The translations under genes and the position numbers were made by a program. A DNA stretch of 46,396 nt from contig JADHYK010000003.1 in the NCBI GenBank assembly GCA_016782485.1, positions 1 to 46,396 of the forward strand. Reading direction: 5' to 3'. The stretch is from Candidatus Omnitrophota bacterium. Its GTDB lineage: Bacteria > Omnitrophota > Gorgyraeia > Gygaellales > Profunditerraquicolaceae. The notes below the pieces were generated by a model. It was not told where the DNA came from. It was given only the letters and a program-made list of their open reading frames with translations, and ran no database searches. Below, one piece after another: positions 1,444-32,503 of the stretch; position 1 is the first letter of the stretch, and each line of letters opens with the position of its first letter.

Positions 1444-2694
1444 ATGAAAAAAATTCCACTCTTAATAAAAACTTTTTTAATCTTTTTCATTTTTAACGTA
1501 ATTCCTCTGCCTATAAATGCCCAGAATAGCCACCAGAATGCCTGGCCTATGGCAACCTTTCTTTACGATTATGCAAAAGTGCTTTACGAACGGGGCGATT
1601 TCCTAAACGCCAGGCATGAGTTCAACACGCTATTGATTATCGACCCCAATAATGCCCTGGCAAAGCATTACCTGAAGAAAATGAGCCCGGTTAAAGAATT
1701 GCCACAGGTCAGCGAAAGAAGAAGGCCTGAGGCAGAACCAGGAATCAGGCCTGAGGCAGGACTCAGGGAAGAAAACAGATGGTTGCGGGCTGCCGTAAGC
1801 CAATTCAGGGAGGAGATTGTAGATAAGAGTATGAGGATTGCCAGCCTTAAGAAAGAGAGAGAGGAGGGCGCAGAAGGCGATGCAGCGTCGAGAGAAAAAC
1901 AGATTGACCAGGCATTGTCGGATGCAGAACGCTATGTTTGCCGGATTAATGAATATGCGCAGGAGATTCGCGGCAGGCAGCAGGCGTTCAGGGCTGCTCT
2001 CCAGGAGAAAGAGATCGAGGCCGCCGAGAAGGACCGGCAGCTCGATTCACTCAGAGAGCACCTAAGGCGCCTTGAGGATGAAAACCTGGATAAAAACAGG
2101 CAGATCGCACAGCTGCAGGCATTCAAGGACCTGGAAATAGCAGATTTTAAAGCAAGGGCGGCTGAGGTGAGGGATCTTTTACAGGCGCAGGAGATGGAGA
2201 TTGCCGCATTAAACAGGGAATTAGAACTGCAGCAGCAGGGCATGGATAAGCGGCTGTTGGAGAGGGAGCTGGAACTGGCCGCAAAATATACAGAAATAGA
2301 GAAGCTGAATATCCGCCTGGACGAAACTAATTTGCAGTTAGCTCAGGCAGAAAAGGACAAGCTCGATAACCAACTCTGGATTGAGCAATTACACAATACA
2401 GTTAAACAGCTAGAGGGGGCATCCAGCGATCAATTAGCTAAATACCTGAAAAAATTAAATTCGCTCGAAGATTCCCTGAAGGCAAAGGAAACTGAATTAG
2501 CCCGGTCAAGCAGGGATTTTGATTCGCGCAGCCAGGAATTACAGGGGCAGCTGTCTGCCAAATCTTCCGAGGCAGAAAAACTCAACAGTAAAATTAACGG
2601 CTGCCAGAAGAAGCTGGTCATCCTGGAAAATTCCCTTAAGGTCAAAGCCCGCGAATTAGCCGAATTAAAAAAGAAATTTGATTTGCGCAGATAA
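1444..2694 (+). CDS. Exported protein with one TPR-like motif and a long coiled coil
   Basis: Signal-peptide-like N-terminus; YAKVLYERGDFLNARHEFNTLLIIDPNNALAKHYL is TPR-like; the rest is E/K/Q/L-rich heptad sequence. Confidence 0.7.
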   Translation: MKKIPLLIKTFLIFFIFNVIPLPINAQNSHQNAWPMATFLYDYAKVLYERGDFLNARHEFNTLLIIDPNNALAKHYLKKMSPVKELPQVSERRRPEAEPGIRPEAGLREENRWLRAAVSQFREEIVDKSMRIASLKKEREEGAEGDAASREKQIDQALSDAERYVCRINEYAQEIRGRQQAFRAALQEKEIEAAEKDRQLDSLREHLRRLEDENLDKNRQIAQLQAFKDLEIADFKARAAEVRDLLQAQEMEIAALNRELELQQQGMDKRLLERELELAAKYTEIEKLNIRLDETNLQLAQAEKDKLDNQLWIEQLHNTVKQLEGASSDQLAKYLKKLNSLEDSLKAKETELARSSRDFDSRSQELQGQLSAKSSEAEKLNSKINGCQKKLVILENSLKVKARELAELKKKFDLRR

Positions 2695-2723
2695 GAGTTA
2701 ACCTAACTCCCCCCGGCGCAATC

Positions 2724-2763
2724 AATAGGCCTCAAGAATATTTCTTGAGGCCTATTTGTTTTT
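2724..2763 (+). terminator. Intrinsic terminator
   Basis: Perfect 15-bp inverted repeat AATAGGCCTCAAGAA-tat-TTCTTGAGGCCTATT followed by TGTTTTT; overlaps a possible TTGAGG-17-TATAAT promoter (2745-2773) for the next gene. Confidence 0.7.
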
Positions 2764-2800
2764 AAGGTATAATCTTGCTTGAGTTAAAAAGGGGGTAAAA

Positions 2801-3274
2801 ATGTTAAAAAAGAATGTTTTTTTATTATTTATTTTTTTATCCGTTCTTATCGCCTGCAGGCCCGCCGGTGCAGAGTTGCTTGAGAAAGGACAGAGTTCAG
2901 AGCAGGTGCTTACCTATGACCGGGATGCAGAAGGGGGCAATGTTGCTCAAGAGACCCCTCAGCCATATATGGGCGGCATAGAAGAGTACCCCTATACTAC
3001 CATGCCGGATACCACTCTCAGGGAAGACGCAACCGACGACACCGGGATTCAGGAATACCCTGCGCCTGATGTTACCCTCAGGGAGGACGTATTCGATGAC
3101 AGCGATGTTCAGGAGTCAGCCGGACCTGACACTACCCTCAGAGAGGTTCCGATGACAGAATCAGCCGGCCCGGATACGACCCTCAGGGAAAAGGCGACCG
3201 ACGACAGCGGGGTTCAGGAATCGGCAGAGCCTCCGACCCCGGACATCTTTGCCCCTAAAAAAAAGAGCTATTGA
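2801..3274 (+). CDS. Secreted acidic protein with four PD(T/V)TLRE repeats
   Basis: Signal peptide (MLKK...AGA), GGGGG RBS; repeats start at 3005, 3065, 3125 and 3170 and vary at synonymous positions. Confidence 0.75.
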   Translation: MLKKNVFLLFIFLSVLIACRPAGAELLEKGQSSEQVLTYDRDAEGGNVAQETPQPYMGGIEEYPYTTMPDTTLREDATDDTGIQEYPAPDVTLREDVFDDSDVQESAGPDTTLREVPMTESAGPDTTLREKATDDSGVQESAEPPTPDIFAPKKKSY

Positions 3275-3289
3275 CGGCAAAAGCAATAA

Positions 3290-4030
3290 ATGCTGAATAA
3301 GAAAAGATTTATCGTCCTGCTGGCTGTTCTGATCATCATCTATGCCGCGGGATATTTATTTTTAACTATCGCGCCGCTTCCTGCCTGGCTGGCGGCGATC
3401 TGGCAGAGACCGCTGCCCGATAAGGTTTTTAAAGGGGCGGCCTGGTTCAGGTTTGCAAAGGATGAAGAGCTGCGGGGATGGGAAGAAAAGATTTTTAAAG
3501 GCAGGGTTTTATATACTGTCGTTGGGGATCAAGAAGACGGCTATCTAAGTGCTTACAGCAATAATTCTGCTTCGGGACTCCTCTATTGGTTGAGTTTTGA
3601 CCCCAAGACACATCCAATGGTCAACTGGAGATGGAAGGTGATCAAATTCCCCGATAAGAAAGGGGGTGTAAACCAAGAGGGGGAGTGGGTAGAGAAAGAT
3701 GATTATGCGGCCAGGTTTTACGTTATTTTTCCCAGGTTTCCTTTTACCAGGGTCCAGTGCCTGGAGTACGTCTGGGATAAAGAAATCCCTGAGGGGACGG
3801 TTATCGAAAATGCGCTTTTTTCAAACTTAAAAATAATTGTCGCCGAATCGGGAGAGAAGAACCTGGGGAGATGGGTTCAGGAAGAAAGGAATGTCTACGA
3901 TGATTTCAGGAGAACCTTTGGAAGCAGGCCCGGCAAGGCCGGGGCAATTGCGATTATGACCGATTCGGATAACACGACAAGTACTGCCGAGGCGCAGTAC
4001 GACGACATAAAGGTGGGCTATGAAAAATAA
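3290..4030 (+). CDS. DUF3047-family protein
   Basis: Motifs WRWKV, DDYAARFYVIF, YVWD and IAIMTDSDNT are characteristic of DUF3047; N-terminal anchor. Confidence 0.75.
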   Translation: MLNKKRFIVLLAVLIIIYAAGYLFLTIAPLPAWLAAIWQRPLPDKVFKGAAWFRFAKDEELRGWEEKIFKGRVLYTVVGDQEDGYLSAYSNNSASGLLYWLSFDPKTHPMVNWRWKVIKFPDKKGGVNQEGEWVEKDDYAARFYVIFPRFPFTRVQCLEYVWDKEIPEGTVIENALFSNLKIIVAESGEKNLGRWVQEERNVYDDFRRTFGSRPGKAGAIAIMTDSDNTTSTAEAQYDDIKVGYEK

Positions 4031-4433
4031 TAAAAGAAAAAAGAAATACCTGGGGACTACTCTGCAGAACAAGTTGCTGATTTTAATCTTTGGCTCGGCG
4101 GTTATACCGGCGGCAATTATAGGCATCTGCATGTATTATCTGATTTTTACCCTGATGGCCTTGCAGATGGTAATTCCGGAGTTGATCGTCTATAATTTAG
4201 TGCCGGTATTGCATAAGATCAACGTGATTATCGCCATCGCGGTGCCGGTCATCCTGTTATTGGTATGGTTTATTGCGCTGGAGTTATCGCACCGTATCGT
4301 CGGTCCGGTTTACCGGATGGAGAGGGAGCTCGATGAGAGGATCAGCGGCGCAAAAAGCGGGCCGATTAACCTGCGTAAAAACGACGAATTTAAGGCTTTT
4401 GCGGAGAAGTTAAACCAACTGATTTGCAAGTAA
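4020..4433 (+). CDS. Two-TM membrane protein with HAMP-like C-terminus
   Basis: Two hydrophobic segments followed by SHRIVGPVYRMERELDE...LRKNDEFKAFAEKLN. Confidence 0.65.
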   Translation: MKNNKRKKKYLGTTLQNKLLILIFGSAVIPAAIIGICMYYLIFTLMALQMVIPELIVYNLVPVLHKINVIIAIAVPVILLLVWFIALELSHRIVGPVYRMERELDERISGAKSGPINLRKNDEFKAFAEKLNQLICK

Positions 4434-4801
4434 AAATTTATTACCACCATACAGACGCCGGTGGCGTAGTCTATTACGCCAGATACCTGGAGTTTCTGGA
4501 AGAGGCGCGCACGCTCTTGCTGGCAGAGCGGGGGGTTTCGGTCCGGGAGCTTGCTGAAGGCGGCACTCTTTTTGTGGTTGCCCGCCAGGAGATAGATTAT
4601 AAGTCTCCGGCTTTTTACGCCGATACCCTGCGGATATTAACGCGGCTAAGCAAGTTAGGCACGGCAAGCATGGAGTTTGAATGCGAGATAATAAACCAGC
4701 ATGAGCGGCTTATATCTTTAGCAAAGACAACCCTGGTTTGTGTCGGAAAAGACCTCAAGCCAAGGGCAATCCCCGCCGAGGTGCATAAAAAATTATCGTG
4801 A
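4424..4801 (+). CDS. YbgC/FadM-family acyl-CoA thioesterase
   Basis: IYYHHTDAGGVVYYARYLEFLEEAR hot-dog-fold motif; TTG start overlaps the previous gene. Confidence 0.85.
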   Translation: MQVKIYYHHTDAGGVVYYARYLEFLEEARTLLLAERGVSVRELAEGGTLFVVARQEIDYKSPAFYADTLRILTRLSKLGTASMEFECEIINQHERLISLAKTTLVCVGKDLKPRAIPAEVHKKLS

Positions 4802-5301
4802 TGGATTTAATCAAGGTTATTAAAGCCAGAAGAAGCATACGCGAATATAAAGACCGTCCTATCCCGAAAGAAATCCTCGCCGATTTAATAGATGCGGCCA
4901 GGTTTGCGCCCACTGCCAGAGGGGTCCAGCCGTGGGAGTTTATCGTCATTACCGAAGAGGCTACCCTGAAAAAAATCGCGGGATTGGCCGAAAACGGCCG
5001 CTTTATCGCTTCTGCCAGGGCCTGTATTGCGGTATTTTGCCGCGATACTAAATACTATCTGGAAGACGGCTGTGCCGCTACCCAGAATTTATTGCTTGCG
5101 GCAACCGGATACGGAATAGGCTCCTGTTGGGTGGCCGGGGATAAGAAACCCTATTGCGCCGAGGTCGCCGGGTTATTAAACGTTGCGGATTCATTAAAAC
5201 TGGTCAGCCTGGTTGCCCTGGGTTATCCTGCCGCAGAGGGCAGCTTTAAAGAGGCAGCTAAGAAAGGCCTCGATAAAATAATGCATTGGGAGAAATTCTA
5301 A
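4798..5301 (+). CDS. Nitroreductase family protein
   Basis: RRSIREY, AARFAPTARGVQPWEF and QNLLLAATGYGIGSCWV motifs; the start may be the ATG at 4801. Confidence 0.9.
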   Translation: MMDLIKVIKARRSIREYKDRPIPKEILADLIDAARFAPTARGVQPWEFIVITEEATLKKIAGLAENGRFIASARACIAVFCRDTKYYLEDGCAATQNLLLAATGYGIGSCWVAGDKKPYCAEVAGLLNVADSLKLVSLVALGYPAAEGSFKEAAKKGLDKIMHWEKF

Positions 5302-5304
5302 GAG

Positions 5305-5556
5305 ATGCCCGGGCCTGTCTATAAGAAGAGCTCATTTGTTTTTTTCGGCCAATCCGGATGCCTGCTGGCGCTGGCAATAGCGTTCAATTTAATCTTTGGC
5401 TGGCTGCTCTTGCCGCCGCTTGCCTGGTTATCGCTGGAGGGAATTTTAATCCTCCTCTTCGTTATAAATGCTAAGATATTGATGAGAAAGATCTCCTCTT
5501 TATCTTGCCCGCCCGGGCGGCGTGATGAGGTCATAGACGTAGAGTCAGAGCCCTGA
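5305..5556 (+). CDS. Small hypothetical membrane protein
   Basis: Two hydrophobic segments and a C-terminal VIDVE motif; starts 3 nt after the previous stop. Confidence 0.55.
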   Translation: MPGPVYKKSSFVFFGQSGCLLALAIAFNLIFGWLLLPPLAWLSLEGILILLFVINAKILMRKISSLSCPPGRRDEVIDVESEP

Positions 5557-5616
5557 AAATACGTTTATGGAAAAGGAAAACCGTGTATTTAAAATTTTTA
5601 AGAAAGGATAGCTAAG

Positions 5617-7716
5617 ATGGGTTTTGATTTATTGATACTGGCTCCGGTGGGTTCAATAACCGCGCTTTTATTTGCTGCTTACCTTGCGTTTTTTATTCTT
5701 AGAAAGGATGAGGGCAACGATACGATGAAAGAGATTGCCCGGGCGGTAAGGATAGGGTCAAGGGCGTACCTTAAAAGGCAGTATTTAGGCGTATCTTTAT
5801 TCTTTTTAGTGGTATTTTTTATCCTTCTGGGCCTGGCATTCAGGAATTACCTGGTTATCTTCGTACCCTTTGCCTTCCTTACCGGAGGGTTCTTTTCCGG
5901 CTTATCCGGGTTTATCGGGATGAGTATCGCCACCCAATCCTCCAACCGCACGGCTGCCGCAGCGATAAAAAGCCTGAACTCCGGCCTGCGCGTTGCTTTT
6001 TCAAGCGGAGCGGTGATGGGGATGGTGGTGGTGGGACTGGGGCTGTTGGATTTAAGTATCTGGTATTATTTCCTCGACTGGTATTATTCTTCACACCCTA
6101 TCCCCATAGGGACGGATAAAATTACCGCGATCACCTCTACCATGCTTTGTTTCGGGATGGGCGCCAGTTCGCAGGCCTTATTTGCCAGGGTAGGCGGCGG
6201 TATCTTTACCAAGGCCGCTGATGTGGGCGCGGACCTGGTCGGTAAAATAGAGGCGGGTATCCCGGAGGATGACCCGCGTAACCCCGCGGTAATCGCCGAT
6301 AACGTAGGCGATAACGTGGGAGATGTCGCGGGCATGGGGGCTGACCTTTACGAATCTTATGTAGGTTCTATCGTTGCTACTTCGGCTTTGGGTGTCGCTG
6401 CTGGCTTAGGCGTGTTGGGTGTAACCGTGCCTATGGTTATGGCAGCGGTAGGGGTGGTAGCGTCGATATTGGGGACATTTTTCGTCAGGAGCAGCGAAGA
6501 GGCAAAACAGAATGTTCTCTTAGCCGCTTTAAGAAAGGGTATTTTTATCAGCGCAATGTTAATAGCGGTGGGTGCTTATTTTCTGATTAAATTTACGCTG
6601 GGCCAGCAGCATATCGGGATTTACTGGTCGGTGGTTACCGGATTAATTGCCGGGGTTTTAATCGGGCTGTCTACGGAATATTATACATCAAGCAATTTTA
6701 AGCCTACGCGTTCTATCGCCGATGCCACCCTCACCGGGCCGGCAACCGTAATTATCAGCGGGATGGCAGTAGGGATGATGTCAACGGCCGTGCCGGTGCT
6801 GGTCGTAGGCAGTGCGATATTGTTGAGTTTCTTTTTTGCCGGGGGGACTGCGAATTTTGCGGCCGGCCTTTACGGTATAGGCATCTCTGCGGTAGGCATG
6901 CTTTCTACCTTAGGGATTACCCTGGCAACCGATGCTTATGGCCCGGTTGCCGATAACGCAGGCGGCAATGCCCAGATGGCGCATTTAGCTCCCGAGGTGA
7001 GAAGAAGGACCGATGCCCTGGACTCTTTAGGCAATACTACGGCGGCAACCGGTAAAGGTTTTGCCATCGGTTCGGCGGCGTTAACTGCCCTGGCATTGAT
7101 TGCCGCATACCGTGACCAGGTAGGGCTGCACGGAGGCAATTTAACCTGCAGCTTTATGAATCCGGCGGCCCTGGTAGGTTTATTTATCGGCGGGATGCTG
7201 CCTTTTCTCTTCTGCTCTCTGACCATGCGCGCGGTAGGCAGGGCAGCGGGTAAGATTGTAGTTGAGGTACGCAGGCAGTTTAAGGAGATCAGCGGCTTGA
7301 TGGAAGGAAAGGCAAAGCCGGATTATGCGGCCTGTGTTACTATTGCTACGGTCGCAGCGCAAAAAGAGATGGTTTTGCCTTCACTCCTGGCAATTATATC
7401 GCCTATCGCCATTGGTTTACTTATCGGGGTAGAGGCGGTTGTAGGCCTGTTAATCGGCGCGACAGTCTGCGGTTTTGTCCTGGCGGTGATGATGGCGAAC
7501 TCCGGCGGCGCCTGGGATAATGCCAAGAAATATATAGAAGAAGGCCATTACGGAGGCAAGGGGTCCCTGTCGCACAAGGCAGGTGTGGTGGGTGATACGG
7601 TAGGAGACCCGTTTAAAGACACCTCCGGCCCCAGCCTGAATATCCTGATTAAGCTGATGTCGATGGTCTCTATCGTTTTTGCCGCCTTCATCGTCTCCAA
7701 CTCCCTGCTCAAATAA
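5617..7716 (+). CDS. hppA: Membrane-bound ion-translocating pyrophosphatase, K+-dependent (probably Na+-pumping)
   Basis: [29 protein letters not shown] and [10 protein letters not shown] motifs; GNTTAA (Ala, not Lys) marks K+-dependence; DLYESY is compatible with Na+-PPases. Confidence 0.95.
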
Positions 7717-7717
7717 A

Positions 7718-7839
7718 GGTTAGGTAGTTAGGTTAAGGTTAGGAAGCCGGTATGGTAGTTTGGTTAGGGTTAGGGTTTTTACATAACCTTAACCCAATTT
7801 TCAATACCGGCGTCTTAACCCTAACCCAATGACCTAACC
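7718..7839. repeat. Long imperfect inverted repeat built from GGTTAG/GGGTTA hexamers
   Basis: GGTTAGGT(7718-25)/ACCTAACC(7832-39), GCCGGTAT(7746-53)/ATACCGGC(7804-11), and inner GGTTAGGGTTA / TAACCTTAACC arms. Confidence 0.85.
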
Positions 7840-7888
7840 CTTTAGTTATAAAGGCATCTTTTTTAAATATAGATTTTTGCTCTTTTGA

Positions 7889-7897
7889 TGTTATAAT
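7889..7897 (+). promoter_or_regulatory. Extended -10 promoter, probably giving a leaderless sigma-factor mRNA
   Basis: TGtTATAAT ends 6 nt before the ATG at 7904; no Shine-Dalgarno sequence. Confidence 0.55.
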
Positions 7898-7903
7898 AAG
7901 ACT

Positions 7904-8509
7904 ATGGACGATTTAGCATTTGTCCAGAGCTGTATCAGGCAGGATCCATTTGCCTGGGATGAATTCGTTGAGAAATATTCACGCCTTATCTACAGTTACA
8001 TCCACAGAGTCTTACATAGCAAGGGTATTGCCGCCTCAGAAAGTTACGCCGGCGATATCTGCCAGGAACTCTTTCATTCCTTAATCAAGGACAATTTTAA
8101 AAAGCTAAAGACCTACCGCGCTAAAAACGGCTGCTCTCTGGCCAGCTGGCTGAGGCAGGTTAGCGTTAATTTTACCATAGATTATACCCGCAGGATAAAG
8201 CCGGCGGTTTCTATGGACCAGGACGAAGAGGGCAGGGGCCCCTTAAAAAATATTCTTGCCGGCGGCGCAGTTTCGGCGCTGGATGCGCTTATCGGCAAAG
8301 AAAAAATTAGCGGCCTGCACGAATGTATCGACAGGCTGGATAACGAAGATAAATATTTTCTGGAATTATACCTGAACCGCGGGATCAAGCCGGAAAAGTT
8401 AAAGAAACATTTTAAAGTCTCGCGCAGCGCCATAGACATGCGCAAGCTCCGGCTGATAGCGCGCCTGCGGGAGTGTTTCAAGAGCAAAGGTTTTGTGTTA
8501 GATTCTTAA
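7904..8509 (+). CDS. ECF-type sigma-70 RNA polymerase sigma factor
   Basis: Region 2 (AWDEFVEKYSRLIY, DICQELF, LASWLRQVSVNFTID) and region 4 (CIDRLDNEDKYFLEL...SAIDMRKLRLIARLRECF). Confidence 0.88.
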   Translation: MDDLAFVQSCIRQDPFAWDEFVEKYSRLIYSYIHRVLHSKGIAASESYAGDICQELFHSLIKDNFKKLKTYRAKNGCSLASWLRQVSVNFTIDYTRRIKPAVSMDQDEEGRGPLKNILAGGAVSALDALIGKEKISGLHECIDRLDNEDKYFLELYLNRGIKPEKLKKHFKVSRSAIDMRKLRLIARLRECFKSKGFVLDS

Positions 8510-8547
8510 TTTTCTTGCGTCTATTATAGTAGGAGAGGAATACGGCG

Positions 8548-9261
8548 ATGACCAATAAATTAGAGGCTTTGATCAAGTCGGTTTATAACAGCTGGCAGGC
8601 CGCTCAAAAACAACAACAGCAGCAGCAGGGCGCGCACCCCGATGAAGAGGCCTTGGCCTGTTTTCTTGAAGGCCGCCTGAGCGAGCAGGAGGGCGAGGCG
8701 ATAAAGGCGCATTTAGTAAGTTGCCGGGATTGCTCTGAGGCCTTCAGCCTGAGCCTGGAGATGGAGAATCTTGAGGAAAGCCAGCTGCCGCAAGGTGCGC
8801 TTACCTATATAAAGGAGCTGCTGGCAGGCGCAGATACGGGTTCTCTATTGGAGATAGTCCTGCAATTTAAAGAGAGGGCGATAGAGATTTTAAGGACCAG
8901 CGGCGATGTGCTTTTCGGCCAGGAGGTGCTGGCGGCTTCGCTTTTACGTGCGCGCAAGATAAAGGATTTCCGGGACGAGGTTATCATCCTGAAAGATTTC
9001 AAAGAGTTAAGGGTCCAGATCAGGGTGGAGAATAAGTCAGGCAGGAGCTTTGACCTGAATATCTCGGTAAAAGATAAAGAAACGCAGAAGGTGATTAAGG
9101 ATTTAAGGGTTACGCTTATCAGGGAGGACCTGGAGCTGGAGTCTTACCTTACCGGCTCAGGAGCGGTAACTTTTGAGCATGTATTATTAGGCAAGTATAA
9201 ACTGGAGATCTCCGGTATCGACGATAAGCTTGCTACGGTATTATTGGATATAAAGAGCTGA
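8548..9261 (+). CDS. Soluble zinc-finger (zf-HC2/ZAS) anti-sigma factor with C-terminal beta-rich domain
   Basis: HPDEEALACFLEGRL...H55-x3-C59-x2-C62; no TM segment; beta-strand-like C-terminus (LRVTLIRE...GAVTFEHVLLGKYKLEI). Confidence 0.82.
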   Translation: MTNKLEALIKSVYNSWQAAQKQQQQQQGAHPDEEALACFLEGRLSEQEGEAIKAHLVSCRDCSEAFSLSLEMENLEESQLPQGALTYIKELLAGADTGSLLEIVLQFKERAIEILRTSGDVLFGQEVLAASLLRARKIKDFRDEVIILKDFKELRVQIRVENKSGRSFDLNISVKDKETQKVIKDLRVTLIREDLELESYLTGSGAVTFEHVLLGKYKLEISGIDDKLATVLLDIKS

Positions 9262-12077: not shown

Positions 12078-12089
12078 TGAATTTAAGCT

Positions 12090-12182
12090 AGATCCTTCGT
12101 CCGCCATAAATCTTGGCGGACTCAGGATTAATTCGCGCATTAACTTACTCGCACTATCGTGTTCGTAAGTTAAGCGCTCATT
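12090..12182 (+). repeat. Composite palindromic element (copy 2) between rplM and rpsI
   Basis: Module A: AGATCCTTCG-TCCGCCA taaatct TGGCGGA-CTCAGGAT. Module B: TTCGCGCA-TTAACTTAC...GTAAGTTAA-GCGCTCA. Confidence 0.85.
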
Positions 12183-12187
12183 AAGTT

Positions 12188-16348: not shown

Positions 16349-17526
16349 TGAAACTTGAAGAAGTATTTTCCAGTTATAAAGATTACATCATGCCTACTTA
16401 CACAAAGACGCCGGTTGTCTTTGTGAAGGGCAAGGGGAGCAGGCTCTGGGATATCCATAACAGGGCATATCTGGATTTCTTCCCGGGTTGGGGCGTAGGC
16501 AACCTCGGGCATTGCCATCCTAAAGTCATGCAGGCGGTGCGGGACCAGGTTTCAAAGTTAATATTTATCCCGAATAATTATTACCACCTGCCACAGGCCA
16601 AGCTTGCCAGGGAGATAGTGTACAGGGCGTTCCCTGCGAAAGTCTTCTTTTGCAATTCCGGGGCCGAGGCAAACGAGGCGGCGATAAAATTCAGCCGCAA
16701 GTTCGGAAAAGGGGCAAGGCATGAAATAATCAGCTTTGAAAATTCTTTTCACGGCAGGACCCTGGCGGCACTGGCGGCAACCGGCCAGAAGAAATACCAG
16801 GAGGGATTCCAGCCTTTGCCCGAGGGGTTCAAGACGGTTAAATTTAACGATATCGAGGCGGTAAAGAAGGCATTAACCGATAAAAGCATAGCTATTATGC
16901 TGGAATTAATTCAGGGCGAAGGCGGGATTAACGTAGCGGACAAAGAGTTCGTTACTGCTTTAAGAAGGCTTTGCGATGAAAAAGGGTTGCTTCTTATCGT
17001 CGATGAAGTGCAGACCGGAGTAGCCAGGACCGGAAAATATTTCGCTTACCAGCACTACGGGATAACCCCGGATATAATCACTCTGGCTAAGGCAATAGGA
17101 GGGGGACTGCCTATCGGCGTAATGGTGGCGAGAAAGGAGATCGCCGATACTTTAGGGCCGGGGATGCATGCCTCTACCTTTGGCGGCGGACCGGTTATCT
17201 GCAGGGCAGCGCTGGCAGTGCTCAAAGCGATACAGAAGGAGAAAATTCCTGCCAACGTCGAAAAGATGAGCGGTTATATTTTCTTAAAATTGAATGCACT
17301 GAAAAATAAATTACCGGTTATAAAAGAGGTAAGGGGCTTAGGCCTGATGATCGGCGTGGAATTAAGCATTGCCGGCAGCCCGATTGTAGAGAAATGCCTC
17401 CAGAGGGGCCTCTTGATTAATTGTACCCATGATAATGTCCTGCGGCTTATGCCGGCATTGAATATAACCAAGAAAGAAATAGATAAGGCAGTAGATATAC
17501 TAGCAGATGTATTAGAGAGTAGTTAG
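16348..17526 (+). CDS. argD: Acetylornithine aminotransferase (class III PLP)
   Basis: NSGAEANEAA, SFHGRT, DEVQTG and LAKAIGGG; operon context. Confidence 0.93.
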   Translation: MKLEEVFSSYKDYIMPTYTKTPVVFVKGKGSRLWDIHNRAYLDFFPGWGVGNLGHCHPKVMQAVRDQVSKLIFIPNNYYHLPQAKLAREIVYRAFPAKVFFCNSGAEANEAAIKFSRKFGKGARHEIISFENSFHGRTLAALAATGQKKYQEGFQPLPEGFKTVKFNDIEAVKKALTDKSIAIMLELIQGEGGINVADKEFVTALRRLCDEKGLLLIVDEVQTGVARTGKYFAYQHYGITPDIITLAKAIGGGLPIGVMVARKEIADTLGPGMHASTFGGGPVICRAALAVLKAIQKEKIPANVEKMSGYIFLKLNALKNKLPVIKEVRGLGLMIGVELSIAGSPIVEKCLQRGLLINCTHDNVLRLMPALNITKKEIDKAVDILADVLESS

Positions 17527-17547
17527 TAGATAGTAGTTAGTAGTTAG
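17520..17547 (+). repeat. TAG(T/A)TAG heptamer x4
   Basis: tagttag tagatag tagttag tagttag, containing the argD stop and followed by the argF RBS. Confidence 0.85.
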
Positions 17548-21801: not shown

Positions 21802-23073
21802 ATGCACGAATTTAGATACATAAATAACCGGTTATATTGTGAGAAGGTCAAAGTTGAGGAGCTGGCGAGAAAGTTCGGTACCCCGCTTTATGTTTACAGC
21901 TACCACACCATGCTGGACCATTTTCATAAATTGCAGGCCGCCTTCAGGAGCGTGAAACCGCTCGTCTGTTATTCGGTCAAGGCAAACTCAAATTTAGCAA
22001 TCCTGAAGGCATTGGTGGATAAGGGTGCCGGCCTGGATATTGTTTCAGGCGGAGAGTTATACCGGGCGCTTAAAGCCGGGTGTCCTGCGCAAAAAATCGT
22101 CTATGCCTCGGTAGGCAAGACCGATAAAGAGATAGAAGAGGCGGTAAAGAAAGGGATACTTTTTTTTAACGTTGAATCCCTCCCGGAGCTGGAGAATATC
22201 AACCGTATCGCCGGGCGTTTTAAAAGACCCGTCAATGTGGCATTGCGCATAAACCCGGATGTGGAACCTAAAACGCATAAATTCATCACTACCGGAAAGA
22301 TTACTAATAAATTCGGCATTGATTTTGCAGTGGCTCGCAGGATTCTTTTATTGCGCCGGAGTTTGTGCAATATAAAAATCTGCGGCCTGCATATCCATAT
22401 CGGTTCCCAGATTACCGAGAGCGCGCCTTTTGTCGCCGCGATAAAAAAAGTCATCGCTTTCCTGGCAAGAATGAAGAATGAAGGCGTGACCCTGGAATAT
22501 TTAAACCTCGGCGGCGGCCTGGGGATAGTCTATGATAACGAGAAGCCGCAGACGGCAGTTAAATTTGCCGCTCAAGTTTTGCCGCTGTTGAAGAGAACCG
22601 GCCTCAAAGTTATTATGGAGCCGGGAAGGTTTATTATCGGTAACGCCGGAATTCTGGTGGCCAGGGTGTTGTATTGTAAATCTACGCCCAGAAAGAGATT
22701 CGTCATCGTTGATGCCGGAATGAATGATTTAATCCGGCCCTCTTTTTACAATGCCTACCACCAGATCCTGCCTATCCGCTATCCGCTATCCGCTATCCGC
22801 TATACGGAAAAAGTGGATATCGTCGGGCCGATCTGCGAAAGCGGGGATTTTTTTGCCAAAGACAGGCGCCTCCCCCGATTAAAAGAGGGGGATTTTATCG
22901 CGGTGATGAGCGCAGGGGCCTATGGTTTCAGTATGTCCTCCAACTATAATTCCCGGCGCAGGGCTAAAGAGGTTATGGTGGTCAAAGATAAGGCCTTCGT
23001 GATCAGAAAAAGGGAGAGTTTCCAGGATTTATTGCGTAACGAAATAATCCCCGCGTTTTTAATGGGGTTATAA
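21802..23073 (+). CDS. lysA: Diaminopimelate decarboxylase
   Basis: YSVKANSN, HIHIGSQ, LGGGLG, EPGRF and GPICESGD. Confidence 0.97.
   Translation: MHEFRYINNRLYCEKVKVEELARKFGTPLYVYSYHTMLDHFHKLQAAFRSVKPLVCYSVKANSNLAILKALVDKGAGLDIVSGGELYRALKAGCPAQKIVYASVGKTDKEIEEAVKKGILFFNVESLPELENINRIAGRFKRPVNVALRINPDVEPKTHKFITTGKITNKFGIDFAVARRILLLRRSLCNIKICGLHIHIGSQITESAPFVAAIKKVIAFLARMKNEGVTLEYLNLGGGLGIVYDNEKPQTAVKFAAQVLPLLKRTGLKVIMEPGRFIIGNAGILVARVLYCKSTPRKRFVIVDAGMNDLIRPSFYNAYHQILPIRYPLSAIRYTEKVDIVGPICESGDFFAKDRRLPRLKEGDFIAVMSAGAYGFSMSSNYNSRRRAKEVMVVKDKAFVIRKRESFQDLLRNEIIPAFLMGL
22772..22806 (+). repeat. CTATCCG x4 + CTATACG heptamer tract inside lysA
   Basis: Read directly; encodes PIRYPLSAIRYT. Confidence 0.9.
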
Positions 23074-23074
23074 G

Positions 23075-24106
23075 ATGGGAAAAATCAATCCTTCGAAAGC
23101 CCGGGCTAAAGCCCACGATTTACTCAGGATTGATACTGAGAGCGGCGTATTCTTTCCACGTCCTAAAGGGCGGGGTTCCAACGCCGCCGAATGTATCAAT
23201 CCTTCGAAAGCCCGGGCTAAAGCCCACGATTTACTCAGGATTGATACTGAGAGCGGCGTATTCTTTCCACGTCCTAAAGGGCGGGGTTCCAACGCCGCCG
23301 AATGTATCAATTTTACCAAAATGGTTGCCTCAGGTAATGACTTTATTGTGGTTGAGCGCCTGGCCAATCTGCCGGCCTCCCGGTTTAAAAAGACAGTGAG
23401 AGAGATTTGTGATAGAAAATACGCCGTAGGGGCAGACGGGGTGCTTTTGCTGGAGAAGTCTAAAAATGCGGATATCAGAATGCGCATCTTTAATGCCGAC
23501 GGCTCCGAGGCAGAAATGTGCGGCAACGGGGCGCGCTGTATTGCGTTATACATAAGCCGCAGGGGGAGTGCGCAGAAAAAAATAGAGACGATGGCCGGGA
23601 TAATCCAAGCGCAGGTAAACGGCGATAACGTAAAGATAAAGCTCACCGACCCCAAAGATATAAAACTGGATATTTCCCTTAAAGTCAACAACCGCGAGCT
23701 GGCAGTCAATTTTATCAATACCGGTGTCCCGCATACGGTGATCTTCGTAGAGGGCCTGCAGAATATAGACGTATTTGATTTAGGCAGGCAGATCCGTTAT
23801 CATAAAAAGTTTGCCCCGGCAGGGACGAACGTAGATTTTGTAGAAGTCTTCAATAATGATTCTATAGGGGTGAGGACCTACGAGAGGGGCGTCGAGGGGG
23901 AGACCCTTGCCTGCGGCACGGGAGTAGTTGCTGCGGCGTTAATTGCCGATTATAAGTTAAGAGCCGCAGATTTTAGAAAGATAAACGTGAAGACAAGAAG
24001 CGGGGAGGTATTGAGGGTATATTTTGAGAGGGTAGGCAGCGGTTTTGAAAATGTCTGGCTTGAGGGCAGGGTAAAAATAGCCTATACGGGGGCAATAAAG
24101 ATTTAG
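23075..24106 (+). CDS. dapF: Diaminopimelate epimerase with a 74-aa N-terminal insertion
   Basis: FTKMVASGNDF, AEMCGNGARC, GVPH, GTNVDF, TYERG and TLACGTG. Confidence 0.93.
   Translation: MGKINPSKARAKAHDLLRIDTESGVFFPRPKGRGSNAAECINPSKARAKAHDLLRIDTESGVFFPRPKGRGSNAAECINFTKMVASGNDFIVVERLANLPASRFKKTVREICDRKYAVGADGVLLLEKSKNADIRMRIFNADGSEAEMCGNGARCIALYISRRGSAQKKIETMAGIIQAQVNGDNVKIKLTDPKDIKLDISLKVNNRELAVNFINTGVPHTVIFVEGLQNIDVFDLGRQIRYHKKFAPAGTNVDFVEVFNNDSIGVRTYERGVEGETLACGTGVVAAALIADYKLRAADFRKINVKTRSGEVLRVYFERVGSGFENVWLEGRVKIAYTGAIKI
23084..23305 (+). repeat. Two identical tandem 111-bp palindromic elements in frame in dapF
   Basis: 23084-23194 equals 23195-23305; followed by ATCAAT, identical to the first 6 nt of the unit. 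Confidence 0.95.
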
Positions 24107-24116
24107 GAGGCAAATT

Positions 24117-24992
24117 ATGTTTAGCGGCTCAATTGTTGCCATAGTAACACCGTTTAAAAACGGGAAACTTGATGAGAATAAATTAAAGGAATTGGTTGAA
24201 TTTCAGCTAAAGAATGGCAGCAGCGGCATTGTGCCTTGCGGGACCACGGGGGAATCGGCGACCTTAAACTTCCAGGAGCACGAACGGGTTATCGAAGTTA
24301 CGATAAAGCAGGTCAACAAGAGAGTTCCGGTTATCGCAGGGACGGGCTCCAATTCCACGGAGGAGGCGATAATGTTGACCAGGGCTGCGGCCGTTGCAGG
24401 GGCAGACGCTTCGCTGCAGGTCTCGCCGTATTATAACCGTCCGACGCAAGCCGGACTTTATGAACACTTTAAAAAGATAGCCGATAGCGTGGGCATACCG
24501 ATTGTTCTTTATAATATAGCTTCGCGCACCGGCGTCAATATCGAGCCGGAGACGATCGCAAGATTGGCTGCGGATTGTAAAAATATTGTAGGCGTAAAAG
24601 AGGCTTCAGGGAGCCTGGACCAGATGTCGCGCATAAGATTATTGTGCGGGGAAAAATTCGATCTGATTTCCGGGGATGACAGCCTGACCCTGCCGATATT
24701 AAGCATAGGCGGCCGGGGTGTTATTTCGGTTATAGCCAACATTGTGCCTGAGGATGTGGCAGGTCTGGTCAGATCTTACCAGAAAGGCGACTTTACCAAA
24801 GCAGTACAGTTGCATTATAAGTTGCTGCCTTTGACTAAAGCCTTGTTTATAGAGACAAACCCCATACCGGTAAAGACGGCGATGGGGCTATTGCGGTTGT
24901 GCGAACCGGATTTAAGGCTTCCTATGTGCACGATGTTGCCGGAGAATCTGGAAAAACTTAAGAAAGCGTTAAAAGACTATGGATTGTTGTAA
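24117..24992 (+). CDS. dapA: 4-hydroxy-tetrahydrodipicolinate synthase
   Basis: GTTGES, PYYNRP, GVKEASG and ETNPIPVK. Confidence 0.97.
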   Translation: MFSGSIVAIVTPFKNGKLDENKLKELVEFQLKNGSSGIVPCGTTGESATLNFQEHERVIEVTIKQVNKRVPVIAGTGSNSTEEAIMLTRAAAVAGADASLQVSPYYNRPTQAGLYEHFKKIADSVGIPIVLYNIASRTGVNIEPETIARLAADCKNIVGVKEASGSLDQMSRIRLLCGEKFDLISGDDSLTLPILSIGGRGVISVIANIVPEDVAGLVRSYQKGDFTKAVQLHYKLLPLTKALFIETNPIPVKTAMGLLRLCEPDLRLPMCTMLPENLEKLKKALKDYGLL

Positions 24993-24997
24993 TTTTT

Positions 24998-25063
24998 TAG
25001 CGTTTAGCGGATAGCGTTTAGCGTATAGAAAAACTATCCGCTATACGCTCTACGCTATACGCC
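24998..25063. repeat. Inverted heptamer array (TAGCGNN / CTATNCG) hairpin
   Basis: tagcgtt tagcgga tagcgtt tagcgta tag -aaaaa- cta tccgcta tacgctc tacgcta tacgcc. Confidence 0.88.
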
Positions 25064-25077
25064 AACAGGAGAACAGC

Positions 25078-25791
25078 ATGATTAAGCTCGGAATCGCGGG
25101 TGTTTGCGGTAAAATGGGCAGGCGGATCTTGGAATTAGCGCAGAAAGATAGGGATTTTGAAGTTACCCTGGCCCTGGAAAGAAAAGGTACGCCGATGATC
25201 GGCAGGGAGATAGGTAAGCTCAAAATTTCATCCAGTCTCGATGGTTTGTTCCTGGCGGATGTATTCGTGGATTTTACTGCGCCCGAGGCGGCCGACGTCC
25301 ATCTGGATTATGTGGCAAAATACAAAAAAGCGCTTGTTTTAGGCACTACGGCCTTAAGCCAGGCACAATTAAAGAAGGTGGAGGAGGTTTCTAAAACAGT
25401 GCCGGTGGTATATTCCGTGAATATGTCCGTGGGGGTGAATGTTTTATTTTCCCTCTTGCCGCAGATAGCCCAGAGGTTAGGGCCCGATTACCGGATAGAA
25501 ATAGTAGAGGCGCACCACAAGGACAAAAAGGATGCGCCTTCAGGCACGGCAAAAAAAATGGCTCAGCTTTTAAGCGACGCCACAAAAAGAGAAGTCGCGG
25601 TCCACGCCGTAAGGCTGGGCGATATCGTGGGCGACCATACGGTTATTTTTTGCGGGAACTCCGAACGCATTGAAATAAAGCATCAGGCGCATTCGCGTGA
25701 TTTATTTGCACTGGGCGCGCTTAAGGCCGCCAAATGGATTAAAGGCAGGCCCGCAGGCCTTTATTCCATGCAGGACGTGTTGAAGCAGTAG
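25078..25791 (+). CDS. dapB: 4-hydroxy-tetrahydrodipicolinate reductase
   Basis: GVCGKMG, DFT, GTT and EAHHKDKKDAPSGTA. Confidence 0.96.
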   Translation: MIKLGIAGVCGKMGRRILELAQKDRDFEVTLALERKGTPMIGREIGKLKISSSLDGLFLADVFVDFTAPEAADVHLDYVAKYKKALVLGTTALSQAQLKKVEEVSKTVPVVYSVNMSVGVNVLFSLLPQIAQRLGPDYRIEIVEAHHKDKKDAPSGTAKKMAQLLSDATKREVAVHAVRLGDIVGDHTVIFCGNSERIEIKHQAHSRDLFALGALKAAKWIKGRPAGLYSMQDVLKQ

Positions 25792-25816
25792 TTAGTAGTT
25801 AGTAGTTAGTAGTTAG
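25789..25816 (+). repeat. TAGTTAG x4 (perfect)
   Basis: Begins at the dapB stop and is followed by the GGGGAGG RBS of dapL. Confidence 0.9.
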
Positions 25817-29632: not shown

Positions 29633-32503
29633 ATGCAGAACGAGTCCATCATTATTCATGGTGCAAAAGAGCACAACCTAAAAGATATAAACCTTAGGCT
29701 TCCCCGCAATAAACTTATTGTGGTGACCGGCCTCTCGGGTTCGGGAAAGTCCTCTCTGGCATTTGATACGATATATGCCGAAGGCCAGCGCCGTTTTATC
29801 GAGAGCCTTTCCAGTTATGCCCGGCAGTTCCTGGAGCAGTTACAGAAGCCGGATGTGGAATATATCGAGGGGCTCTCGCCTGCTATCGCTATCGAGCAGA
29901 GAAAGGCAGGGGGGAGCCCGCGCTCTACGGTTGCCACCCAGACCGAAATATACGATTACCTGAGGTTGCTCTTTGCCCGTATCGGGAGGGTGCATTGTTA
30001 TCAATGCAACCAGCCTATAGAGCGGCAGAGCTCCCAGGAGATAATAGAGAGGGTAATGCAGCTGCCCGTCGGGTCCGAAATTCAGGTTTTGGCTCCGCTG
30101 GTGCGCGGCAGAAAGGGCGAATACAGGGATATTTTTACCCAGGTCCAGAAATCGGGTTTTGTGCGGGTGCGGGTTGACGCCAGGATTTATGAATTGTCCT
30201 CCTTCGCCAAGGCTTCGGAGGACTATCCGTCGAAGCTGAGCGCAAAAGCAGCTCAGCGAAGGCGGATGCCGCAGAAACTTAAGCTCGCCAAATATAAGAC
30301 TCACAATATTGAAATAGTAGTTGATAGGTTGACGGTGAAGCCCGAAATAAGAAAGCGGCTGACTGATTCCATAGAGACCGCCCTTAAAGTCGGCAAGGGT
30401 ATTGTTATAATTTCCGACCAGAAAAAAGCCATCGACCAAGTTTATAGCGAACAATACGCCTGCACAAAATGCGGCATAAGTTATACGGAGGTGGAGCCGC
30501 GCAATTTCTCCTTTAATTCTCCTTATGGTGCCTGCCCGGAATGCAACGGCCTGGGGACAAAATTGGAATTTGACCCTGATTTAGTTATCCCGGACAGGAA
30601 TAAATCCATAAATGCAGGGGCGATTGCCCCCTGGAAAAGAGGGGGCAGGGGTTATATCCTCTATTACCGTTGGCTGATCAGGGAGCTATCGCGCCGGATA
30701 AGGTTTGACCTGGACCTGCCGTTTAAGAAATTGAGCAGGGAGATTCAGAGGGCGATTATTTACGGCAGTACTGAATTCGTAGGCAGCAAGCCTTTTGAGG
30801 GCGTTATCCCGCATCTTGAGAGGCTCTTTCGTCAGACAGAGAGCGATTACCGCAAGGAAGAGATCTCCCGGTTTATGTCGAGCCTCCCCTGTCCCTTATG
30901 TAACGGTGCCAGACTAAAAAAAGAGAGCCTGGCGGTCAGAATCAATGGCAAGAATATCCGGGAGGTCACAGGTTTTTCTGTAAAAGAAGCCCACCGTTTT
31001 TTTAGCGAATTAAAGTTAGGGCAGAGACAAAAAACTATTGCCCAGCAGGCGCTCAAAGAGATAGCCTCAAGGTTGAAATTCTGTATCAATGTTGGCCTGG
31101 ATTACCTGACTTTAGACAGGAAGAGTTCGACCCTTTCGGGAGGCGAGGCACAGAGGATACGTTTGGCAACGCAGGTAGGTTCGGGCTTAGTAGGAGTCCT
31201 CTATATCCTTGATGAACCCAGTATCGGTTTGCATCAGCGGGATAACGATAAATTACTGGCTACCCTGAAGGCATTGAGGGATTTAGGCAACACCCTGATC
31301 GTCGTAGAGCACGACGAGTCCACCATCTGTGCCTCCGATTACATAGTAGACTTAGGCCCGGGAGCAGGCAGGCATGGCGGAGAGGTGATTTTCTGCGGGA
31401 CAAAACAGGAGTTATTAAAAGACCGGCATTCGCTCACCGCAAAATACCTAAGGAGAGAGCTCAAGATTGAGCCGCCTCTTAAAACCAGGCCCTGGCGCAA
31501 CAGGAAATTTCTGGAGATAAAAGGGGCAAGGGAGCACAATCTTAAAAATATAGATTTAAAATTCCCTCTGGGTACTTTTATTTGCGTTACCGGCGTATCA
31601 GGTTCAGGCAAATCTACCCTTATCGACGAGATATTATACCGCGGCCTGGCGCAGAAACTATATAACTCCAAAGAAAAACCCGGACTGTGCGCAAAAATTA
31701 CGGGCATAGAACATATCGATAAGGTCATCGAGGTTGACCAGTCGCCGATAGGCCGGACCCCGCGCTCAAATCCCTCAACGTATACCGGGGTATTTGCTCA
31801 CATCAGGGAGATATTCAGCAGGCTCCCCGAGGCGCGGGCAAGAGGTTACCGGCCGGGCAGGTTTTCCTTCAACGTCAGGGGCGGCCGTTGCGAGGCATGT
31901 ACAGGCGACGGGATAAAAAAGATTGAAATGCATTTTCTGTCCGATGTCTACGTAAAATGTGATGTCTGTAAAGGCTTAAGGTTTAACCAGGCAACGCTGG
32001 AGGTTAAATATAAAGGCAGGTCCATTGCTGATGTCCTGGAGATGACCGTAGAGGAGGCGCTGGAGGCATTTACGAATATCCCCAGGATAAAGAATACCCT
32101 CGGTTATTTATATGATGTAGGTTTAGGTTATATTCAACTCGGGCAATCCGCCACTACCCTCTCCGGAGGAGAAGCCCAAAGGGTTAAACTCTCTTCGGAA
32201 CTGAGCAGGCGCGCAACGGGCAGGACCCTTTATATTTTAGACGAACCTACGACAGGACTACATTTTGCCGATGTCGCAAAGTTGATCGGCGTGCTTCAGA
32301 GGCTGGTGACCAGTGGCAATACCGTTTTAGTCATAGAGCATAATCTAGAGGTAATAAAATGCGCCGATTATGTCATTGACTTGGGGCCGGAAGGAGGAGA
32401 TAGAGGAGGGGAGGTCGTGATTGCCGGCAGCCCCCAGGAGATAGCTAAATGTGCCAACTCCTATACGGCACAGTTTTTGAGAAAGATATTGAAGGGCGTA
32501 TAA
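29633..32503 (+). CDS. uvrA: Excinuclease ABC subunit A
   Basis: GAKEHNLK, two GxSGSGKS Walker A motifs, two LSGGEAQR signatures and zinc fingers; start at ATG 29633. Confidence 0.98.
30197..30268. repeat. 72-bp double-hairpin insertion in frame in uvrA
   Basis: TCCTCC-TTCGccaaggCTTC-GGAGGA plus ATCCG..GCTGAGC..GCTCAGC..CGGAT; encodes [24 protein letters not shown]. Confidence 0.82.

Follow-up and report, generated by a model that had tools for sequence, protein, structure and literature searches.

We analysed a 46,396-nt stretch of DNA from a Candidatus Omnitrophota bacterium (GenBank GCA_016782485.1, contig JADHYK010000003.1; hereafter the window), in which the epimerase gene dapF carries a tandem palindromic insert directly behind its first three codons. 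The genome (G000) comprises 1.04 Mb in 62 contigs and is 89.8% complete. Upstream lies lysA (21802-23073, + strand, 423 aa), whose TAA stop at 23071-23073 ends one base 5' of the ATG of dapF, as seen in the open reading frame (ORF) list and the sequence. The dapF ORF occupies 23075-24106 of the same strand and encodes 343 aa: MGK, two copies of INPSKARAKAHDLLRIDTESGVFFPRPKGRGSNAAEC and then INFTKMVASGNDF, that is, MGK and 74 repeat-encoded residues in front of a 266-aa DapF. Its native codons 1-3, ATG GGA AAA (MGK; 23075-23083), were recognized from the sequence and from the starts of relatives. The anti-Shine-Dalgarno (anti-SD) duplex marked GGGG at 23064-23067 on the + strand, 8-11 nt 5' of the native start, as a weak SD-like sequence.

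The tandem insert and its empty site

Repeat finding placed unit 1 at 23084-23194 and unit 2, 100% identical to it, at 23195-23305, both on the + strand and each of 111 bp or 37 codons. The two identical in-frame inserts after codon 3 that had been claimed in an earlier interpretation of this DNA (the sequence-only reading) were thereby confirmed as exactly 2 x 111 bp at 23084-23305. Tandem Repeats Finder reported 23084-23311 with a period of 111, 2.1 copies, 100% matches, no indels and a score of 456, and a 51-nt piece of the unit occurred twice in the window versus in none of 100 dinucleotide-preserving shuffles. The frame is open through both units, which contain no in-frame ATG, GTG or TTG. 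The insert has an ATCAAT at either edge and another where its two units meet, and each unit amounts to 105 bp plus one ATCAAT. The repetition of ATCAAT at the right boundary, also pointed out earlier, is present at 23306-23311 (+ strand), where the hexamer forms codons 4-5 (Ile-Asn) of the uninterrupted dapF. The DNA 3' of the second unit reads ATCAAT TTT ACC AAA ATG GTT GCC TCA GGT AAT GAC TTT. Because each unit opens with the same hexamer, the ATCAAT at 23306-23311 is the target or a duplicated hexamer.

Each unit consists of two interlocked hairpins on the + strand. Hairpin 1 of unit 1 (23084-23134; counterpart in unit 2, 23195-23245) begins 10 nt 3' of the dapF ATG and is composed of ATCAATCC, TTCG, a GGGC-TAAA-GCCC inner hairpin, CTCA and GGATTGAT. 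Hairpin 2 (23130-23199; counterpart, 23241-23310) is composed of TTGATAC, TGAG, a GCGGCG stem with an inner CCACGTCC-TAAA-GGGCGGGG, CGAA-T and GTATCAA. TTGAT, at the centre of the unit, is common to the outer stems of both hairpins. Folded as a 117-nt RNA, the unit reached -41.5 kcal/mol (z = -3.5), a value that none of 200 shuffles equalled. On one strand, judged by their letters, the tetranucleotides can form tandem G.A pairs (5'-UGAG/3'-AAGC). The two halves of the element are one module in opposite orientations, and the generic module (stem-TTCG-hairpin-CTCA-stem, other stems allowed) matched 87 times in G000. Interlocked hairpins with a shared module pattern had been proposed before; both are in the sequence, and the fold is as described. 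Rfam gave no match at the gathering score across the whole window; with E up to 10, STnc420 (E = 2) and CRISPR-DR31 (E = 2.4) appeared around the insert and were rejected as chance-level hits.

We looked for the insert in assembled Logan contigs, not raw reads, of four public runs (X1, X2, X5 and X8). With 31-letter words, the words specific to the unit-to-unit junction span only 23171-23224. In X2, a 292-nt contig covered the left junction (22822-23113, from the end of lysA through MGK to nt 30 of the unit) at a depth of 268, and an 800-nt contig covered the right junction (23282-23700) at a depth of 254. Two unit-internal contigs of the same run, 23084-23152 and 23127-23200, showed no mismatch and had depths of 500 and 506, about twice those of the flanks. 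The tandem joint itself was found in X1, as a 54-nt contig of exactly 23171-23224 at a depth of 28.5, and in X5, within a contig of 23171-23263. No 111-bp-skipping joint was present among the contigs of the four runs, a single-copy allele having no word of its own. On account of the junctions, the joint word and the doubled depth, at least two copies are supported by three studies and exactly two are fitted by X2.

X8 contained a different allele. Of a 380-nt contig, 358 nt aligned with 23309-23666 with 3 differences (99%) and the other 22 nt with 23065-23086. The contig joins 23086 to 23309, skipping exactly 222 bp and reading ATG GGA AAA ATC AAT TTT ACC (MGKINFT) with a single ATCAAT; it is the empty dapF site in a near-identical strain. 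JGI metagenome contigs yielded 594 DapF relatives, the best of them 66% identical, and no further close allele. The sequence-only reading had proposed to settle the copy number (0, 1 or 2) with reads; done on contigs, the count gave two copies in three studies and none in the close strain.

Exact tandem repeats longer than the k-mer are difficult for short-read assemblers, and all of the read evidence comes from contigs, so that the tandem might have originated in assembly, through collapse or expansion of a repeat or through a chimeric contig. Such an artefact is extremely improbable against both flank junctions, the 54-nt joint words and the doubled unit depth in independently assembled runs of three studies. 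The tandem is real DNA.

That removal of 222 bp restores a canonical DapF start, another claim of the sequence-only reading, is borne out by the X8 contig and by the relatives. In the same-genus genome G001, lysA ends in ...LLGI* and is followed through TAGGATG by MRKIEFTKMVASGNDF (CGC AAG ATA GAG TTT...), giving MRKIEFTKM. An ATG lies at most 5 codons upstream of the conserved (I/L/V)xF.KMVASGNDF in 28 of the 30 fetched loci, the loci without a nearby ATG, and hence with an uncertain start, being L031 and L037. Of 41 genomes searched at the protein level, 39 had a DapF. In the alignment of DapF orthologues, which had been suggested as a check, the insert residues (74 columns) are absent from all 38 relatives, and G000 alone has them.

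Translation of the interrupted gene

The protein behind the insert is an ordinary DapF. Pfam DAP_epimerase (PF01678) matched with E = 1.3e-48 in 2 stretches, the first beginning at residue 80. The catalytic cysteines C149 (MCGNG) and C280 (ACGTG) are invariant with the 38 relatives, and all columns invariant among the 39 aligned sequences are kept. AlphaFold, supplied with the 39-sequence alignment, modelled the 343-aa protein with a mean pLDDT of 80.1 and a pTM of 0.77; residues 1-72 had a pLDDT below 50, and residues 77-342 adopted the two-domain DapF fold with confidence.

The native ATG, the GGGG and the one-base spacing to the lysA stop are all intact. Because the insertion left this start and its link to the lysA stop unchanged, the most likely product is the 343-aa DapF. 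The reading frame survived because the unit has 37 codons without a stop in that frame. On sequence and model, DapF is probably translated from the native start through the dimer into a 343-aa protein with a disordered 77-residue N-terminal tail. The tail (MGK plus the 74 repeat-encoded residues) would precede an otherwise normal epimerase, and translation through the insert with tolerance of the tail by the enzyme is the most likely outcome. According to the predicted translation, the repeat-encoded part includes the peptides INPSKARAK, RIDTESGVFFPRPK and IDTESGVFFPRPK, the last of which is tryptic.

Several observations weigh against this conclusion. Most copies of the element in G000 lie at gene junctions, between genes, so that a translated copy would be an exception for this family. 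Hairpin 1 and the stable fold of each unit could hinder initiation, and no public RNA run was found to contain the dapF insert stretch. The low pLDDT of the tail partly reflects missing homologues in the alignment. As for the DNA, the empty-site joint of X8 is a single contig with a short side of 22 nt and a depth of 5.5, contig-based evidence leaves room for a mixture with single-copy alleles, and one of the supporting runs may be the source sample of the genome.

The intergenic preference also favours a different start. The first in-frame ATG 3' of the insert, the M of FTKM at 23321-23323 (+ strand), is the sole alternative, and translation from it would make the repeats an untranslated spacer, the open frame a matter of chance and DapF a protein without MGKINFTK. 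In another copy of G000, on contig C37, the next ATG likewise lies directly 3' of the element without an SD sequence. A strong hairpin stands 10 nt 3' of the upstream ATG of dapF, and an open in-frame insert is not improbable by chance, the unit being open in three of the six frames. However, the generic anti-SD duplex was +0.1 kcal/mol at the internal ATG, that is, no SD-like pairing, versus -5.4 kcal/mol at the native ATG, which still has GGGG upstream and remains coupled to the lysA stop. A start at 23321 would also drop the conserved I-N-F-T-K, including F80 and K82 (invariant in the 39 sequences), together with the first beta-strand. We therefore assign the internal start a low probability and retain the native one.

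Translational bypass has its models in T4 gene 60 and the mitochondrial byp elements. For T4 gene 60, the sources cited here describe bypassing of a mobile-element-borne gap of 50 nt (10.1101/2022.08.31.505936; 10.1101/2024.12.09.627546). In dapF, a ribosome might hop from AUC-AAU to AUC-AAU 222 nt further on, or the insert might be excised from DNA or RNA in part of the population. Identical ATCAAT codons occupy the possible take-off and landing sites, with a hairpin 3' of the take-off site, and an insert-free allele exists in a close strain, which speaks for removal and from which gain or loss at the DNA level follows. Programmed bypass of the T4 gene 60 type was nevertheless rejected: the ATC AAT codons match, but no stop follows the take-off codon and the 222-nt gap is itself an open frame. 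Every in-gene copy found is in an open frame, which hopping would not need, although genes split by closed-frame copies were not searched for. An intein or a self-splicing intron was rejected as well, since Pfam sees only DAP_epimerase in the 343-aa protein, with no intein feature, and Rfam gave no gathering-score match. Skipping or removal of the insert thus appears exceedingly unlikely.

The insertion is recent, because the units are identical and the insert is absent from the 99% identical strain. A young insertion might also have crippled dapF, leaving a new pseudogene or a strongly down-regulated gene that persists only because too little time has passed, and structure by the start codon could lower expression. 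Yet the frame is open and all invariant residues are kept; the gene is the only dapF copy found in G000; lysA and, on the + strand downstream, dapA (24117-24992, 291 aa) and dapB (25078-25791, 237 aa) of the same pathway are intact according to the ORF list; and the two-copy allele recurs in three metagenome studies, at high depth in X2. The probability of a crippled dapF is accordingly very small. The sequence-only reading had offered a tolerated N-terminal extension, skipping and excision as possible outcomes; the extension is the best supported of them, and neither skipping nor excision found support.

Other DapF proteins contain in-frame extras elsewhere. The DapF of locus L047 (G001:C46) lacks an N-terminal insert but has a 26-aa in-frame insert, NVSLRAPKGRSNPGFEIASSGFALLAMTD, at codons ~80-106, encoded by a long palindrome (GTCATTGCGAG...CTCGCAATGAC) and located in a surface loop. 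In-frame loop extras of 10-19 aa (e.g., GSTGSPSLEPSRAKSRDWQ and VVPALPARLAAEPRAGRH) were seen in the DapF of L055, L034 and L019, from other Omnitrophota and metagenome contigs, and their DNA looks repeat- or hairpin-derived.

The element family and its movement

The two-hairpin element is present in G000 in 9 copies, distributed over 8 loci; among them, the copy on contig C27 is full and 91% identical to the dapF unit. The conserved frame of the element is ATCAATCC-TTCG-(variable hairpin)-CTCA-GGATTGAYAC-TGAG-(variable hairpin)-CGAA-N-GTRTCAA. Its central 18-mer (at most 1 mismatch) was found in 25 of 151 sampled genomes of the order, with 1-8 matches per genome and none for the reversed control. 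Both outer stems show compensatory changes (TTGATAC/GTATCAA vs TTGACAC/GTGTCAA; ATCAATCC/GGATTGAT vs ATCAACCC/GGGTTGAT), and at L139 all three ATCAA/TTGAT segments have changed together to ATTAA/TTAAT. The stem parse kept 22 of 36 distinct elements (at least 7/8 and at least 6/7 pairs), a filter that biases the percentage paired, and only the kinds of compensatory change were taken from it. Because such changes occur at several stem positions, what has been maintained is the fold, or else the ability of the centre to pair with both ends, whereas the inner hairpins and the encoded peptide vary across the family. Genome G153 has a second interlocked tandem pair, with diverged units. The family is spread patchily through this Omnitrophota order; in the literature on Omnitrophota, supplementary files aside, we found no paper describing such palindromic mobile repeats.

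Intergenic spacers of the window contain members of the generic module at 12087-12184, 17169, 19323, 30914-30990 and 45592, with GATCC/GGATC and GGATAAG/CTTA stems. Directly 3' of the C27 copy (G000:C27:12093-12209, L003) stands a tRNA 5'-half-like sequence, GCGGGCGTAGTTCATCGGTAGAAC...; ARAGORN called no tRNA directly after this copy, the nearest being a tRNA-Gly 143 nt away.

Copies touching genes were found both in G000 and in relatives. In G000, PanB owes its final 16 residues and its stop codon to the C37 copy (G000:C37:2980-3068, L005), which is followed directly by the ATG of the next gene, as noted above, and the C39 copy lies at the 5' end of a 7TM-HD gene whose true start is uncertain. 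Three frames of the unit (+0, +1 and -1) contain no stop; its three others are closed. At least 11 other genes contain relatives of the unit in frame; these occur in both orientations and use precisely the three open frames. A collection of 5.8 billion proteins was searched with the +0 and -1 unit peptides, covering proteins longer than 130 aa. Among 121 candidates for the +0 peptide, 4 hosts were recognized (a radical SAM protein, a Wzy_C protein, HisI and a T2SSB-like protein), and among 414 candidates for the -1 peptide there were 5 (IscU, a DUF3108 protein, a histidine kinase, a CcsA-like protein and an MFS permease). The inserts of HisI and IscU follow residues 6 and 7, respectively, both within the first 8 codons. 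In genomes of relatives, the element is traversed by open frames that extend far to either side of it in the genes for AspRS (G075; frame +0) and a RimO/MiaB-type enzyme (G082; frame +1) and, in G063, in the gene for DNA polymerase I and one more gene. Occurrence in both orientations and in exactly the open frames is as predicted for a selective filter acting on the host gene. In-frame survival is a survivorship effect, not design.

A search of representative proteins with the 38-aa unit peptide gave 24 matches, 8 of which were inspected. P0025 was the sole element carrier among these 8; the other seven were repetitive ORFs (FPRPSGRGSIAA or YPRPKGRGSIAA arrays) that matched the unit peptide in 4-9 stretches and only via the GC-rich inner hairpin. 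Predicted proteins made of many FPRPSGRGSIAA, YPRPKGRGSIAA or IHGRKAVAPLR units include P0005-P0011 and P0018. By their letters, the repetitive FPRPSGRGSIAA/YPRPKGRGSIAA ORFs resemble the translation of arrays of a different GC-rich hairpin repeat, which may be CRISPR arrays.

How the element moves we infer from its ends. In the single pair of empty and filled sites, the empty site has one ATCAAT and the filled site has one at each unit edge. A 111-bp non-coding two-hairpin mobile repeat would have entered dapF at the pre-existing ATCAAT (codons 4-5) and then doubled, by a second insertion into the ATCAAT recreated at the ends of the copy or by slippage. Either route would produce exactly the interlocked dimer, because every copy would recreate the target at both ends. 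The pattern fits either a 6-bp duplication of a preferred target or a landing beside the fixed pentamer TTGAT (bottom strand) of an element whose end carries the same pentamer.

Candidates for the mobilizing enzyme were sought in G000 and in the order. Y1_Tnp (PF01797), the TnpB zinc-ribbon, rve and DDE_Tnp_1 had 0 matches in G000; with the genome 89.8% complete, the absence of a transposase is not proven. A protein with only an HTH domain beside the C57 copy and an integrase beside the C8 copy were considered, and neither could be tied to the element. Y1 (IS200/RAYT-like) genes are present in 126 of these 151 genomes of the order, often in 2-12 copies. They occur in 22 of the 25 element-bearing genomes vs 104 of the 126 others and therefore do not discriminate element bearers. 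The element core (at most 3 mismatches) was found within 1.5 kb of the Y1 gene at 0 of the 30 best loci of relatives, and blastn-short of these 30 loci against the element gave nothing beyond 12-nt chance matches. The Y1 gene of G001 (L174, G001:C7) encodes 167 aa with visible HUH and Tyr motifs and is flanked by different 59-nt inverted repeats, built from GGGACGTC-type units.

A bolder model may be drawn from these data, although we consider it rather unlikely as a whole. The element would be transposase-less, target-selecting mobile DNA: its central ATTGAT would pair with both ends, guide it to ATCAAT (TTGAT) and recreate the target, a RAYT-like Y1 protein would move it in trans as single-stranded DNA, and selection would have filtered it to a 37-codon length open in three frames. 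If so, the recreated target at each end would let copies pile up as interlocked tandems, and the three-frame-open length would let the element colonize essential genes.

Repeats of other kinds were also seen in the window. Within lysA, a heptamer array, (CTATCCG) x 4.6 at 22772-22803, codes in frame for PIRYPLSAIRY. The reverse complement of this array (TAGCGGATAGCG...) occurs in the dapA-dapB spacer (24995-25028) as a 34-nt arm with 82% complementarity, and G001 has a diverged heptamer stretch at the same position of lysA. The lysA heptamer is very abundant in metagenomes, as its words reach depths of 2000-9000. (AGTAGTT) x 4 arrays at 17513-17547 and 25787-25816 stand directly 5' of a strong ribosome-binding site (GGGAGAGAGATG and GGGGGAGGGATG, respectively) at two gene starts.

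Comparison with known palindromic and mobile repeats

The Rickettsia palindromic elements (RPEs), reportedly described by Ogata et al. in 2000, are the closest parallel in behaviour. In a more recent account they are given as ~150 bp long, with many in-frame insertions in unrelated metabolic genes (PMC10969869). As far as that account describes RPEs, the likeness comprises palindromic repeats of ~100-150 bp that are scattered in a small genome and stand in frame in unrelated housekeeping genes, adding a peptide without destroying the protein, with no transposase of their own and at tolerant sites (the N-terminus in dapF). The Omnitrophota element is likewise a multi-copy palindromic element with stop-free in-frame insertion into unrelated genes. 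The RPE analogy drawn by the sequence-only reading fits, the same family being in frame in many unrelated genes. There are also differences. The two families belong to unrelated phyla and are likened here by behaviour, not by comparison with RPE consensus sequences. The Omnitrophota family is conserved in its nucleic-acid stems, with compensatory changes, and not in its peptide, and it is distinguished by two interlocked hairpins, a central TTGAT, fixed TTCG/CTCA and TGAG/CGAA loops, ATCAAT ends and exact head-to-tail dimers. By this analogy, the best reading of the insert is an RPE-like selfish insertion at a pre-existing ATCAAT that was then doubled.

IS200/IS605 elements and their gene-less derivatives (PATEs) have two subterminal hairpins and no classical terminal inverted repeats (TIRs), and IS200/IS605 elements insert, with no duplication of the target, on the 3' side of a fixed tetra- or pentanucleotide. 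The Omnitrophota element has two subterminal hairpins and no classical TIRs either; on the bottom strand it follows TTGAT, which was already present at the empty dapF site, and its central segment is complementary to, and co-varies with, both ends (at L139, all three are TTAAT/ATTAA). In contrast to IS200/IS605, we found neither a TnpA in G000 at its present completeness nor an autonomous copy bounded by these ends. At the left end the geometry, as read from the sequence, is unlike the canonical guide-then-hairpin arrangement, and the same pentamer stands at both ends, so that the result resembles a target duplication. The likeness of the inner hairpins to IS200/IS605-type end hairpins, inferred by the sequence-only reading, is a putative one.

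Repetitive extragenic palindromes (REPs) are characterized, in the source consulted, by a 20-40-bp palindrome with an unpaired tag, GTAG or CGTC, on one of its ends and by RAYT (Y1) transposases (PMC3733652). As REP, BIME and REPIN sequences are outlined there, the likeness lies in short GC-rich hairpin repeats that are often paired oppositely and are mostly intergenic, sometimes intragenic, and, on the Omnitrophota side, in the commonness of RAYT-like Y1 genes in the order. Unlike a REP of that description, the Omnitrophota element has no GTAG/CGTC tag, its conserved tetranucleotides are internal to stems, it measures 111 bp versus 20-40 bp, and it gives 1-8 core matches per genome, not hundreds. 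A REP/REPIN-RAYT identity was therefore rejected: there is no tag, no Y1 gene in G000 as far as it is complete, and no element flanking any of the 30 Y1 loci.

ERIC/RU elements (PMC2759123) and Coxiella MITEs (miniature transposable elements with inverted repeats; PMC5896051) are presented in these sources as non-autonomous repeats containing open frames that in some cases form in-frame fusions with host genes, features shared with the Omnitrophota element. As characterized there, they bear TIRs and are proteobacterial, whereas the Omnitrophota element lacks TIRs and has direct ATCAAT ends. A classical MITE was rejected, as the ends are direct repeats (ATCAAT...ATCAAT), not inverted, and G000 has no match to rve, DDE_Tnp_1 or TnpB domains.

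The family extends the RPE phenomenon, selfish hairpin DNA in frame in essential genes, to a free-living, uncultured phylum with small genomes. Long N-termini and odd loops in annotated Omnitrophota proteins may be repeat-derived and should be viewed with caution. With its 111 nt and its ATCAAT target, the unit could serve as a defined substrate in the search for the mobilizing enzyme, and in dapF one can ask concretely how much ballast at the N-terminus is tolerated by an essential enzyme. Filled and empty sites in near-identical strains, rare for such elements, show where the insertion occurred, how large it was (2 x 111 bp) and which hexamer was its target. The dapF case is an in-frame selfish palindromic element, a known kind, and it is notable for this filled/empty pair and for having an exact dimer right at the beginning of an essential gene.

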